Of a stretch of DNA of 64,000 nucleotides, positions 16,960 through 42,597 are shown piece after piece (position 1 is the first letter of the stretch; every line of letters begins with the position of its first letter). The position numbers and the translations under genes were made by a program. The stretch is from a virus (Duplodnaviria > Caudoviricetes). Under the pieces are notes generated by a model. It saw nothing but the letters and a program-made list of their open reading frames with translations, had not been told where the DNA came from and did not search any database. The stretch is from positions 1 to 64,000 of the IMG/VR virus record IMGVR_UViG_3300021387_001758. One strand, written 5' to 3'.

Positions 16960-17674
16960 ATTTTAGAAGGCATAGGTTGAAAAAAATATCTTGTGGGGAT
17001 AATAGGTTCAGATTTTTGTTTCGTGGAGATAATGTAGGGGCCGTTTTTCTCTAACGCTTTCCAAAACCTTCCTTTTCCTAAAATAACCCCGGCCCTTCGA
17101 GCGATTGACTTTGTTAAATTTTTAACAACCTCTTCATCAATTCTCACTCAATTTTTCCGCAAGTTACTGTCGCCCAAAAGAACATATGTTCTTTTTTCTA
17201 TTGTCAAAAAATTTTTAGAATTTCGAAAGAATTCCTAAAAGGGGCCGGTCATTTTTTATTCACCCCTCTTCAATAAAAACCACCCCTCTTTTAGTCGAAC
17301 AAAGGAGATCCTATTCTGCGGGCCAGGGTCGCGAAAAAGAACATATGTTCTTTTATTTAGTCCGGACTTTGTTAAATTTTTAACAAAGTCGTAGTCCGGA
17401 CTTTGTTAAATTTTTAACAGGTGATCGTCTTATCTTTGGGACGTTTTAGTCCGGCCTTTGTTAAAAATTTAACAAAGTCCCGCGCGAGTTGGGGGGCCAA
17501 ACACTTTAGCGCATTAAAGTAGTAAAGCGAACCTCTTCATTTTGTATTGTGTATACAGTATACAAGGACAAAAAAATAAATTAAAAAGATAATAAAAAAA
17601 TAATAAAAAGGGGTTGACAAGTTATAGTATCCATGCTATTATATATATGTAAGAAAGAGAGAGGAGAAAAGGAA

Positions 17675-37920: not shown

Positions 37921-38506
37921 CATACCACTACAGTTTTCACTGCCACTAAAATGTTTGTGGTCTGGACTTTCTCTTAGCCATAGATTAATCCTTAGGCTCT
38001 CCCTGTAAAGTCTCTACACACGACTATTTGTCTTGCTCGGGATTAGCATATAATGAATATTGTTTACGGTCTTTTCTACCCTTTCCTTTATTCGCGCCTT
38101 TGTAGGTTGCGGTTAAAGAATGACAGTTAGGACACAAAACTATTAAATTATCTTCAGAATTATTTTGATAGTTACCATCAATATGTTCAATCTCTAATGG
38201 TAAAGTATTAGTAAAAGGATTAATTTCACCCCATCCGCAACGCGCACATTTATAATTATATTTCTCAAACAAATATCGCTTCAGATGTTCGGAAATGCCA
38301 TATTTCCCTCTTAATCCAGTTTCTTGACCTTTTTTCCAACGAGTTACCCATTGTTTATGTTGGTAATCCATTTGGCATTGATTGCAACAATATTTAGTTT
38401 GTCTACCAGTTAATTCTTTTCCGCAATTTAAACATTTCATTACTTAGCCTTCCCCGAATTAGGGGAGTGTTCACTTATAAGTTTCCTTATAAGGTTGCAA
38501 TAATTT
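37921..38506 (-). mobile_element. Group I intron with HNH ORF
   Basis: Follows exon U, ends in G; P AATTCGGGGAA, Q AATCCCGAGC, R GTGTAGAGACT, S AAGAGAAAGTCC. Confidence 0.85.
38024..38440 (-). CDS. Intron-encoded HNH endonuclease
   Basis: CARC...LEIEHIDGNYQNNSEDNLIVLCPNCH. Confidence 0.9.
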   Translation of the reverse strand: MKCLNCGKELTGRQTKYCCNQCQMDYQHKQWVTRWKKGQETGLRGKYGISEHLKRYLFEKYNYKCARCGWGEINPFTNTLPLEIEHIDGNYQNNSEDNLIVLCPNCHSLTATYKGANKGKGRKDRKQYSLYANPEQDK

Positions 38507-38547
38507 ACAAATCACTTGCGCTACCAATTGCGCCACACCAGCACACT

Positions 38548-38720
38548 TAAGGGTAAGCTAGCTACTTCCTACCCTTATGGTGGTTATTTTTACTCACTAC
38601 TTGCAGAGTACCTCAACCCTGGTTTTACCGACTCCAGGGGAAACGGGTGGCTGACTTTCGTAAAATAACCAAACTACTTGGGGAGCCACAACCTATCCCT
38701 AGCACAGACAAAAGTCCTAC
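38548..38720 (-). ncRNA. Candidate structured RNA between tRNA-Asn and tRNA-Thr
   Basis: 9-bp closing stem (38582-90/38662-70), inner CCCTGG/CCAGGG stem, extra hairpin 38548-38577. Confidence 0.4.
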
Positions 38721-38727
38721 TGGGTAA

Positions 38728-38802
38728 TGGCGGGAAGGATAGGACTCGAACCTACAACCTCGTGCTTAACAGGCACTTGCTCCACCATTGAGCTACCAAC
38801 CC
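38728..38802 (-). tRNA. trnN: tRNA-Asn(GUU)
   Basis: Cloverleaf, CCA; two U-U mismatches in acceptor stem. Confidence 0.85.
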
Positions 38803-38812
38803 ACGCTCAAGT

Positions 38813-38953
38813 CTATTCAGACTGCGCGCCTTCAAGATTTCTAATCTGTCTCTTCAGTTTCCTCACTACACCAGAACTCTCACCGTTCTTTCCGTTCGAC
38901 TGAAGAAGATGCAGCCTATGTTTAAGACCTTCAATAGATTTTCCCTTTGCCAT
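38813..38953 (-). CDS. Small basic protein (46 aa)
   Basis: Hand-translated MAKGKSIEGLKHRLHLLQSNGKNGESSGVVRKLKRQIRNLEGAQSE; AAGGAG RBS. Confidence 0.55.
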   Translation of the reverse strand: MAKGKSIEGLKHRLHLLQSNGKNGESSGVVRKLKRQIRNLEGAQSE

Positions 38954-38978
38954 AAAATAAACTCCTTTCTTAAAGAGC

Positions 38979-39615
38979 AAACACCCTTTAATAAATATAT
39001 AATTAAGAGTCTTTCAACTTACTAACTACTAACGCCACTATATTTGACTAATGGGGAGACATACCCAAGCAATAAGGAGCGACCCTATTACTATATGCCC
39101 CGCTTGCGCCAAGCCCATAGAGGACTGATTACCTCTACCTTTCAGGTGATATTCGGCAATTTTTTAGAAAAGCAATCTCTCTATCTTCCTTGCTTCATAC
39201 CAAATAAATTAATATGCTTGAGTCTTCGCAGATTTACCCTACTCGGAGTTGACATACAAACGGTTATACACAGATTTCTCTGCTTCAACTGCAAAACGAA
39301 TTATTGGCATTTCTTAGGTTTGCCCCTGGGCAGCCAACCCAAAACCTAACTAAGATTCGGCGTTTGCTATTAACAAGCGCTTCTATTATTTCGCCCGTTC
39401 GTATTCTGTCTTTAGCTCACGTTAGCAGTAGCGCTACACCTTTGGTTTCGGCTTCCAACCTACACGATAGTCGTCACCGCCTATCGCACAGCCCCTTAAC
39501 GAGTATCCCCGTTTCTATGGACTGACCGCCCTTTCGGGTTGTTTCGGTGTACCTCAGCACTGCAATCAGCAACTCTTCACTGAGTTCTTATTTATATATT
39601 TATTAAAGAGTGTTT
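38979..39615 (-). ncRNA. Large (~630 nt) structured ncRNA candidate, possibly GOLLD-like
   Basis: No credible ORF; elevated GC; ~30-bp terminal inverted repeat; own promoter TTGACG(39668-63)-N17-TATAAT(39645-40). Confidence 0.6.
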
Positions 39616-39810
39616 CTCCTTTCTTTACCTTATATAAATATTATACCGAAAATTTGGATTTTCGTCAAATTTTCAGAAATATTTTTCTCTAAAAATTTTA
39701 TCTTGTTTAAAGGCTTTTGTTTATCGGTACGCCACAAGAGCCTTAACTCCCGCCACTACCCTACGTTTACCGTACAGACCCTCTCAAGCGAGCGCCAGTT
39801 AGTGGATTGA

Positions 39811-39885
39811 TGGCTACGGCGGCTGGGTTCGAACCAGCGAATGACGGAGTCAAAGTCCGTTGTGTTACCACTTCACCACGCCGCA
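39811..39885 (-). tRNA. trnQ: tRNA-Gln(UUG)
   Basis: ACGGA-CUUUGAC-UCCGU; CCA. Confidence 0.95.
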
Positions 39886-40030
39886 ATATAAGTGGCATAT
39901 TTTCCCCATATGCCGGAAGGGCGAGTTTAACGGCCCTCGCGCCGCCTATTGATTATGCCCTCAACAGGATAAGAGCTGTGGTGCGCCTGACTGGAGTCGA
40001 ACCAGCACGATCTCACAATCGAGGGATTTT

Positions 40031-40768
40031 CCTGCTACTCCATGTTGCCATGGCCGCGTCACCGCGTTGTAGTCTGGACTTTCTCTTCACCATGCGTTAA
40101 TACGTTTAGGTGCGCGCCGTCAAGTCTCTACACGTTCCTCATTTGAGGCTTCGCTCGGGATTGTCCACGTGGGAGTTTCCCCGAATTTGACGCGATTCAC
40201 ATGGGAGTTTCCAACCCAAGTGCTCTATTTTATATTTTTGGTTTTATATGTATCAGTAAAATAATGACAATTAGGACAAAGTATTTCGAGATTATCTAAA
40301 TGATTATTATTTTTATTGCCATCTTTATGATGTAACTCTAATGGAATAGGATTACCCAACCACTCAGTCAAGCCACAACGGCAACATTTTTTCTCGAAAA
40401 ATCCTTCGGCAAATAATCTATTTCTTAGTTTAAAAGAAGTAATTGCTTGTTCATTATTCAAATATTTTTCTATTGGAGTTCGATATTTTCCAATATTTTT
40501 TGTGTGTGCTTGACCAGTAAAATGAGAAGTATCAAAATTATATTTCTCACACATCTCTTTTATAGTCTTAATAGCAGAACCACCATCTGGATTATATCCT
40601 ACTTTATTAGCTAACTCTCTAAAAGATTCACTCTCAGCACACATTACTGATAACTGTTCAACAGTAAATTTTTCATACTTTTTCATACCTTTTCTCCTCT
40701 TATCTCTCTACTTATAAGTAGAAAAAAGGCAGACTAAATATAAAAAATTAAACCAAACCTATATCGAA
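40031..40768 (-). mobile_element. Group I intron with HNH ORF 5' of the core
   Basis: Ends in G; AAATTCGGGGAA, AATCCCGAGC, GTGTAGAGACT, AAGAGAAAGTCC all lie after the ORF. Confidence 0.85.
40225..40686 (-). CDS. Intron-encoded HNH endonuclease
   Basis: CCRC...LELHHKDGNKNNNHLDNLEILCPNCH. Confidence 0.9.
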   Translation of the reverse strand: MKKYEKFTVEQLSVMCAESESFRELANKVGYNPDGGSAIKTIKEMCEKYNFDTSHFTGQAHTKNIGKYRTPIEKYLNNEQAITSFKLRNRLFAEGFFEKKCCRCGLTEWLGNPIPLELHHKDGNKNNNHLDNLEILCPNCHYFTDTYKTKNIK

Positions 40769-40809
40769 AAGTCCCTTGCGTCTGCCTATTCCGCCACAAG
40801 CGCGCAGTT

Positions 40810-41058
40810 CTATTCATCAAAGAACTTCCAAATCGGATTCACAAAATCATAATCCCGATTAGAAACTCTATAATTGCCAAACAACTTTACCAACTCGTCA
40901 AGCGTTCCACCGATTTTCAAATAATCTTTCATGGCTTCAAAAGCCTTACTCTGCGCGGCGATCTTATTCTTTTCCTTGTCTTTGAACTGCTTTTCTGCAG
41001 CAAGGCAATCCTCAACTGTATCGTACTTCTTTCCGGTAATTTCACTTACAACATACAT
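40810..41058 (-). CDS. Hypothetical protein (start MYVVSEITGKKY)
   Basis: GAGGAG RBS; the longer ORF-track start overlaps an RNA gene. Confidence 0.6.
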   Translation of the reverse strand: MYVVSEITGKKYDTVEDCLAAEKQFKDKEKNKIAAQSKAFEAMKDYLKIGGTLDELVKLFGNYRVSNRDYDFVNPIWKFFDE

Positions 41059-41092: not shown

Positions 41093-41173
41093 TGGTGGAG
41101 TCGATGGGAATCGAACCCATGTCCGAAACACTGCACTTTGGCCTTGATGCCCCGTCGAAACCATTCCGACCCC
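41093..41173 (-). ncRNA. ssrA: Minimal tmRNA: tRNA-like domain only (81 nt)
   Basis: GGGGUCG-GAAUGGUUUCGAC 5' end; GAC-AUGGG-UUCGAUU-CCCAU-CGACUCC-ACCA 3' end; G3-U70 pair; no mRNA-like domain. Confidence 0.8.
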
Positions 41174-41254
41174 ATAGAAGAAGGAGCTGAACGCTCCTTT
41201 CTTATATACCATATAGACAATGGTACGTAGGTGGTGAAACCTAAGAAATAAAAA

Positions 41255-41655
41255 ATGGTTTAATTCTGATTCCGTAAGGTGGGTCGCAGTATCCTTCTGC
41301 GACTAAACCAATAGGTTACTTTGCCTTCTTATTTGGTCAAGGTGCGTTTGCCACAAGGCCACATATCAATCAATGAAAGCATAGTCGAACTAACTAAATC
41401 TTATGAGACAATTGCCGGTGGTAGTTTACCTATTAAAATCCATGTTAACGCATCTGCTACTGACCATCTGAGTAGCGCAGGGCTTGACTTACATCGGCTC
41501 AAGCATACCTTGGAGAATTTAAGAACTAATCCTCAACCGCAATTCTCCTTACGATTACGTTCCGTCCGTAGACAACGCTTAGCCAGATTAGTAATTTGCT
41601 GAATTTATATCGTTAGTCAGCGACTCCGTACACGTTTAGGGTCGAGTAAAGACCA
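41255..41655 (-). ncRNA. Large (~400 nt) structured ncRNA candidate, ROOL-like
   Basis: No credible ORF; starts right after tRNA-Met CCA; GUCGCAG/CUGCGAC hairpin; CCAAGGUAUGCU and GUUAACAUGGA resemble ROOL as I recall it (unverified). Confidence 0.5.
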
Positions 41656-41734: not shown

Positions 41735-42128
41735 AAGGAACTTTGGACGCATCCTTAGTTCCTAGGCTTACTCCGAAGAGATAGGCCTCTATTCTTCATT
41801 TGCTACAACTTCGAGTTCGTTCCACGGATCCTTTCTCTATATTTCCGAAATTCTTGTGGTGATCAAATCCACGGTGAGTATTGTTGTATCGCATCCGTCC
41901 CTTTCGGAGACGCGACCTGTTGCTTCAGGCGACTCTCTCATAGACATTGTTCCGGAACTGCCTATGTTGGATTGTTGTATTTTATTGCAAACGCACTCCC
42001 ACTTTACTCAAGGCTTGTGACTTGCACGGCCTAAACCTCTGTTTAAGCTTGATGGCGTGGTTACGTTTAGCATCGAGAGGGGAGAAAAGGAAAGGAAGTA
42101 AGATTTATCTCCCCTCTCTTAACTTTCT
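41735..42128 (-). ncRNA. Candidate ~390-nt leader or ncRNA
   Basis: Promoter TTGACA(42163-58)-N17-TATAAT(42140-35); no credible ORF; several hairpins. Confidence 0.4.
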
Positions 42129-42173
42129 ATATATATTATAGCAAAGTTTTATAATTTTGTCAAAATTTCTTTC

Positions 42174-42404: not shown

Positions 42405-42597
42405 TTATAACCTTCTTTCTTAGTTTAATTTTGAGAGTTGAACGCGGCGTCTCGTTCGGATTAGTGGGAATTGAACCCTTGGCTCTTACCTACCATAAGT
42501 TTTTAACTTCGAGCCTTCTCTTACTTTTTCCTCTCTCTTAACTTTCTATATATATTATATAAGAAAATTATAAATATTTCAAATTATTTTTTATAAA

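Follow-up and report, generated by a model that had tools for sequence, protein, structure and literature searches.

Does the long inverted repeat among the tRNA genes of this tailed phage enclose a large structured RNA, and, if so, which one? An earlier note, made from the letters alone, had proposed an ornate RNA of the GOLLD or ROOL kind closed by a long terminal stem, and had named a mobile element with terminal inverted repeats (TIRs) as the alternative. The window analyzed here is the first 64 kb of a 78,387-base IMG/VR record, rated 66% complete by CheckV, and its phage genes include those for the large terminase, a tail protein, a sigma factor and HNH endonucleases. The element lies in an RNA island of about 6 kb (38.7-44.4 kb) with 22 tRNAs, 21 of which were found by ARAGORN, all on the minus strand, and one additionally. 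Its neighbors are tRNA-Gln (39811-39885) on one side and, on the other, a 46-aa open reading frame (ORF) and then tRNA-Asn (38728-38802); this is the phage or prophage location beside tRNA genes that is expected for ROOL.

The element matches ROOL over its full length

When the whole window was scanned with Rfam 15, ROOL (RF03087) matched end to end at 39608..38989 on the minus strand, with 305.7 bits and E = 2.4e-69, about three times the gathering score of the family (99.1 bits). The match covers model positions 1-574 of 574, and is thus not truncated, and it delimits a ROOL RNA gene of 620 nt (38989..39608). A record-wide search repeated the same match, which is the sole one in all 78 kb. 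GOLLD (RF01998), by comparison, had no match in the window, neither at the gathering score nor at E <= 1, so that the Infernal check proposed in the earlier note was positive for one of its two families and negative for the other. The expectation of a large ornate RNA was therefore borne out, with ROOL as its identity. We read the element on the minus strand because the RF03087 match, the wobble pair in the terminal stem, the stronger fold, and the tRNAs and promoter all agree. We are confident that it is the gene for a ROOL RNA of ca. 620-650 nt in a tailed phage of a gut or rumen community.

ROOL has been known since 2017 (Weinberg et al. 2017, PMC5737381) and the structure of its cage since 2025, and phage tRNA islands are its textbook address. 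The locus is accordingly not new: it belongs to a described family as an ordinary member and lies where such members usually do. Like the described ROOLs (PMC5737381, PMC12286853, PMC12990946), the window copy matches the model at full length (620 nt, against a family mean of 581), has a multi-junction fold with covarying helices, a closing helix P1 and an unconserved internal linker where one is expected, and occupies a phage site of rumen or gut origin beside same-strand tRNA genes. It differs in details only: a 13-nt extra hairpin with a GAAA loop early in the RNA, a linker that is the longest among ten aligned copies, a P1 of 30-37 bp, near the upper limit of its range, and a sigma-70-type promoter of its own in the place that a tRNA, a tRNA-like RNA, a twister-like element or a hairpin takes in several relatives. 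GOLLD is also a large ornate phage or prophage RNA that occurs beside tRNA islands and forms an RNA-only cage (PMC12286853), but its sequence and fold are unrelated to those of ROOL; the functions of the two are probably related. A blastn search of the ROOL locus against cultured-phage records gave no match.

The inverted repeat is the closing helix P1

The two arms of the inverted repeat, which the earlier note had placed at 38979-39008 and 39586-39615, are present and in fact extend to 37 nt each (38972-39008 and 39586-39622), with 86% complementarity in a repeat search and 32 of 37 positions paired by manual count. Within the 30-nt core there are two departures from pairing. One is a U-G wobble when read on the minus strand and a C-A mismatch on the plus strand, and the other is an A-A mismatch. 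As had been supposed, the long terminal stem closes the RNA: the inverted repeat is the outermost ROOL helix, P1, in which model positions 7-22 pair with 555-571. In RNA sense, the 5' arm is 39586..39622, where the Rfam model pairs occupy 39602-39587 and the helix reaches outward to 39622, and the 3' arm is 38972..39008, as placed by the inverted repeat, the model alignment and the fold. P1 of the window copy is therefore an A/U-rich helix of 30-37 bp that is prolonged outward beyond the model pairs.

The 28-nt arm pattern, searched with up to 3 mismatches, has its only matches in the 64-kb window at the two arms, and 100 shuffles contained no match. Among 20 first-order resamples of the window, the best inverted repeats reached scores of 13-18, a scale on which the 30-nt core would score about 24 as estimated by hand rather than by script. 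The highest-scoring ungapped inverted repeat of the whole window lies elsewhere, at 17364-17388 / 17456-17480 (score 25), in a 17-29 kb block of small genes. The arms of the ROOL element enclose 577 nt, and the GC content of the element is 0.42, compared to ~0.30-0.35 in the protein-coding flanks. The description of a GC-richer interior lacking a credible ORF also proved correct, as the only ORFs there are two on the plus strand, antisense to ROOL and with no Pfam match: one of 101 aa (39044-39349) and one of 73 aa (39304-39525), each with a TTG start.

Conserved fold and variable internal parts

Read on the minus strand, the element folds with -215.1 kcal/mol (z = -7.15), and the terminal stem closes this fold; for the plus strand the values are -156 kcal/mol and z = -4.43. 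An RNAalifold consensus over 10 phage copies has 91 pairs, and 76 of these, those in the P1 columns included, keep pairing through changes on both sides. This consensus recovers only part of the Rfam model pairs, and pseudoknots were left out of the scoring. The window copy has a standard pair at 89 of the 90 consensus pairs that map to it. Thus, the secondary structure of the family is kept, with compensatory changes between members.

A ROOL is expected to be near 580 nt long with one unconserved linker, and the 620-nt window copy fits this description. Its variable internal linker lies at approximately 39140..39225 on the minus strand and includes a 27-nt insertion after model position 393; the same region, alignment columns ~455-540, is not conserved and cannot be aligned between copies. 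It corresponds to the linker that, in the published structure, is disordered and points into the cage (PMC12286853). The extra small hairpin with a GAAA loop (39525..39538, minus strand) stems from a 13-nt insertion after model position 72. It is absent from the nine other aligned copies, with alignment columns 112-124 filled only in the window row.

ROOL is a conserved single-copy gene of its phage clade

Relatives were sought in viral contigs with sequence patterns. A strict first pattern for the ROOL core had no matches there, and a loose 17-base pattern gave 118 loci, among which nhmmer recognized a sole real ROOL (L054; loci are given by our own handles where they need to be told apart). 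A core pattern search then yielded ten further ROOLs, all above the cut-off (249-350 bits). Same-strand tRNA genes lie near these within the stretch examined, except in L124, L125 and L127, whose stretches contain no tRNA gene that reaches the gathering score. In all, 16 other ROOL loci were examined in viral contigs; they share the phage location and are often beside tRNA genes. Nearly every copy has a terminal helix, and the arm sequences are unrelated between copies. With the helix kept while the sequences of its arms are not, P1 behaves like an RNA helix rather than a pair of transposon ends.

A search with the terminase gave 65 loci at ~80% identity, several of them on contigs of 115-135 kb; the nearest cultured relatives by terminase are large phages of Bacillota, at 34-43% identity. 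Ten related records were searched whole. A single ROOL above the cut-off is present in each of the five genomes that are at least 97% complete, whose terminases are ~80% identical, and in one fragment (57% complete); the four records with no ROOL match are 30-70% complete. Within the clade, ROOL is ~70% identical in alignable blocks, and the length of P1 ranges from ~10-12 bp (L197 and L201) up to ~35 bp. ROOL is thus a conserved single-copy gene of this phage clade, and its presence in every complete member despite ~70% sequence identity indicates selection.

Promoter and 5' contexts

The consensus promoter that had been noted upstream of the element was confirmed at 39668..39640 on the minus strand: a sigma-70-type promoter, recognized by consensus match only, with the sequence TTGACG-17-TATAAT (11 of 12 consensus positions). 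With the end of its -10 box 17 nt ahead of the outermost P1 pair, the predicted transcript start would lie at ~39633, about 11 nt before P1. No intrinsic terminator was found after the 3' arm of P1.

The region directly upstream of ROOL differs among the relatives. A promoter occupies this position in the window, L123 and L200, while P1 starts ~10 nt after a tRNA in L122 and L126, 24 nt after an 82-nt mini-tmRNA in L054, and 15 nt after a twister-like element in L120. Six further loci (L196, L197, L198, L199, L201 and L125) have a conserved, covarying hairpin of ~45 nt in the 45-60 nt directly 5' of ROOL. This motif consists of ATGRCACC, ~10 nt and GCCTYCNCGYGGCGGTGYYG, and its outer stem shows compensatory changes (GGCACC/GGTGCT versus GACACC/GGTGTC). 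It has no Rfam match and is absent from the window, where the ROOL promoter holds that position. This variety suggests that the 5' end of ROOL is made in different ways in different phages.

Contigs from RNA libraries

Twenty public runs contain part of the stretch. Six of them are recorded as RNA libraries, of which four are certain and two carry a flag as probable DNA, and the habitats named for the runs are gut, bovine gut and sheep gut. The region 38400-40100 was compared in three RNA runs, which come from three studies of rumen or sheep metatranscriptomes, and in one independent DNA run. Each RNA run has one contig that lies wholly on ROOL with no loose ends (39033-39580, 39028-39550 and 39034-39584; 546, 524 and 550 nt), differing from the window at 7-10 positions, whereas the contig of the DNA run spans 38865-39867, across both ROOL ends. 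Almost all of the natural variants in the RNA-library contigs fall at positions that are unpaired in the partial consensus.

Assembled contigs show neither ends, strand nor level, and RNA libraries can contain DNA, so these contigs are a weak hint at a discrete RNA from the ROOL locus. They stop just inside both P1 arms, at 8-18x depth, which could reflect either processing within P1 or the loss of transcript ends at such depth. Contig cover from the RNA runs is zero on 38799-39026 and 39597-39767, a lack that by itself is no evidence. A 69-nt RNA contig in X13 skips 39155-39262, inside the linker region; its shorter side has just 25 letters, too weak for a linker-less variant.

Other RNA elements and small genes of the island

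Several other RNA elements lie on the minus strand of the island. A tRNA-Leu(UAA) gene at 39979-40803, missed by the default ARAGORN run, is interrupted between U34 and A35 by a 738-nt group I intron (40031-40768) that carries a gene for a 153-aa HNH homing endonuclease (40225-40686). The insertion site is that of the classical tRNA-Leu intron of cyanobacteria and plastids. The ribozyme core (40052-40241) scores 47.3 bits, against an Rfam Intron_gpI cut-off of 50, and the joined exons form an 87-nt class II tRNA-Leu(taa).

A twister-P1-like element at 41990-42067 lies ~70 nt downstream of a perfect consensus promoter (42163..42135). Similar elements were found in relatives at L120:6775-6826, L198:1050-1116, L199:849-913, L200:99-153 and L201:2605-2671, and in six of the eight clade members examined the element is upstream of ROOL on the same strand. 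The scores of 40-57 bits are below the Rfam cut-off of 67.2, with E from 1e-5 to 1e-10. Across the six elements, the variable positions of the pair GTC-N-C with GAG-N'-G read A/T, A/T, G/C, T/A, C/G and A/T, a pseudoknot-like covariation. Judged by sequence, the element is probably a divergent twister ribozyme.

An 81-nt mini-tmRNA with only the tRNA-like domain is located at 41093-41173 (Rfam tmRNA, 75.9 bits). In it, 13 nt replace 306 model positions, and a G3:U70 pair can be read from the alignment. Elements of the tmRNA type also occur in relatives (L054:3860-3941, L200:1150-1229 and L122:1911-2226). The mini-tmRNA of L054 precedes ROOL by 24 nt and that of L200 by ~270 nt, and in L122 a 316-nt tmRNA lies 2.2 kb upstream.

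Besides the ROOL promoter, the island has two near-perfect sigma-70-type promoters, the one already named at 42135-42163 (12 of 12) and another at 42554-42582 (11 of 12). Both are on the minus strand and share the 26-27 nt leader that comes after them (ATATATATAGAAAGTTAAGAGAG...); a stretch in L054 has 86% identity over 117 nt to the leader region of the second. Further structured RNAs may be present in two GC-rich stretches of ~450 nt (~41200-41650) and ~250 nt (41735-41990), which are situated among the twister-like element, the mini-tmRNA and tRNA-Met. Neither contains a long ORF, Rfam models do not match either of them at E <= 5, and the similarities to other loci are all short.

Two small ORFs on the minus strand have strong ribosome-binding sites and no Pfam or PHROG family: one of 46 aa at 38816-38953 and one of 82 aa ('SEITG') at 40810-41058. 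In L120, homologues of both lie immediately downstream of ROOL, and a similar 81-aa ORF comes right after ROOL in L054. As a general partner of ROOL these ORFs were rejected, for they recur only in L120 and L054, the closest relatives, where the recurrence is probably synteny by shared descent. No relatives were found for a neighboring 603-aa protein.

Alternative explanations

Other readings of the locus have to account for the same observations. A MITE, that is, a non-autonomous transposon whose internal structure is incidental to its terminal inverted repeats, would suit a repeat of 30-37 nt around ~580 nt with no credible ORF, in a region with HNH homing endonuclease genes nearby; but the interior matches the covariance model of an RNA family from end to end, the record has a single copy, and no other place in the window has the arm sequence. 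In addition, target duplication is absent, as the bases adjoining one arm are not those adjoining the other, and the comparison with relatives that had been proposed for the TIR alternative revealed no empty site in the five complete genomes, each with its one copy. Arms that vary between copies while their pairing is kept are the opposite of ends recognized by a transposase. We consider a mobile element extremely improbable, and a protein-coding region no less so: the 101-aa and 73-aa ORFs do exist on the plus strand, but they run antisense to every neighboring gene and to the promoter, and they overlap the RNA-family match with its covarying pairs. A decaying or silent ROOL relic that makes no functional RNA is very unlikely. 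The two unusual insertions of the window copy, a family with no known function and the mere hint of transcription would all be compatible with a relic; against this, the copy is not truncated, nearly all of its mapped pairs are standard, a near-consensus promoter lies directly upstream, ROOL is kept across the complete clade members, and the RNA libraries offer their hint.

A further possibility concerns the use of P1 and adds to the ROOL identity rather than replacing it. P1 may be mainly a processing stem, in which RNase III cuts the duplex and the mature RNA loses its outer stem, as in rRNA precursors. RNase III needs a duplex of roughly 20 bp, and the 30-37 bp of P1 exceed this. The RNA-library contigs end inside both arms, at 39580-39584 or 39550 and at 39028-39034, and the ROOLs of relatives that are embedded in tRNA transcripts must be cut out somehow. 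The likeness to the leader-trailer helices of rRNA precursors, which are RNase III substrates, lies in the long duplex formed from both ends of a stable RNA; the difference is that the ROOL duplex is part of the mature fold in the solved members and that its length is not conserved in the clade. The end points of the contigs prove nothing, because transcript ends are expected to be lost at 8-18x depth, and P1 belongs both to the family consensus and to the stems of the cryo-EM model (PMC12286853). Moreover, the ~10-12 bp of P1 in L197 and L201 are too short for the enzyme, which argues against RNase III cleavage as a conserved requirement. A P1 that serves mainly for processing is thus conceivable but unlikely, and we keep to a ROOL RNA with P1 as its closing helix.

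Possible working and role of the RNA

The published ROOLs provide a model of how this RNA may work. Those from a cow-rumen metagenome (env-120), Enterococcus faecalis and Ligilactobacillus salivarius assemble into homo-octamers or hexamers of ~28 nm that contain no protein and have the variable linker inside (PMC12286853, PMC12990946), and P1 is named among the model stems in the cryo-EM study of env-120 ROOL by Kretsch et al. 2025 (PMC12286853). When other RNAs are fused to the ROOL 3' end, the assembly is undisturbed and the added RNAs are displayed radially (PMC12515178), from which it follows that the P1 end points outward. Whether published ROOLs form a hexamer or an octamer depends on one short apical stem, and the oligomer number cannot be read from sequence. 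The phage RNA would be transcribed by the host RNA polymerase from its own predicted sigma-70-type promoter ~11 nt before P1 and, by analogy with these ROOLs, would fold flat and assemble without protein into a hollow homo-hexamer or homo-octamer cage ~28 nm across, with its variable linker facing the interior and the P1 end with the 5' and 3' termini pointing outward.

The cage might then act on the translation apparatus during infection, holding or displaying tRNA-like RNAs or ribosomal parts. We suggest this translation-related role with low confidence, its basis being only the constant company of tRNAs and published speculation, in which the cage encapsulates tRNAs, ribosomal parts or other molecules. 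Our literature search found no report of a function for ROOL since the cage structures, and the L. salivarius ROOL is cited in PMC12286853 as being as abundant as 16S rRNA, yet non-essential.

In these rumen phages, ROOL could also be one part of a conserved, co-oriented RNA module, in which a divergent twister-like ribozyme, in some members a mini-tmRNA, and then ROOL follow one another among tRNAs and work together; we regard this as quite improbable. If it were true, the cage might, for example, display or sequester tRNA-shaped RNAs and their binding factors during infection, and the varied 5' neighbors (promoter, tRNA, mini-tmRNA, twister and hairpin) would be alternative ways to release or tether ROOL.

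Our additions to what is known of the ROOL family are modest: its conservation as one copy per genome within a defined clade of rumen phages, the variety of its 5' contexts, an expression hint from three independent metatranscriptomes, and recurring RNA neighbors. As a discovery the locus carries little weight. It can, however, serve as a specimen for the study of ROOL function, for it combines its own strong promoter, a well-sampled clade of 115-135 kb rumen phages with one copy per complete genome, the expression hint and the recurring company of other RNAs.
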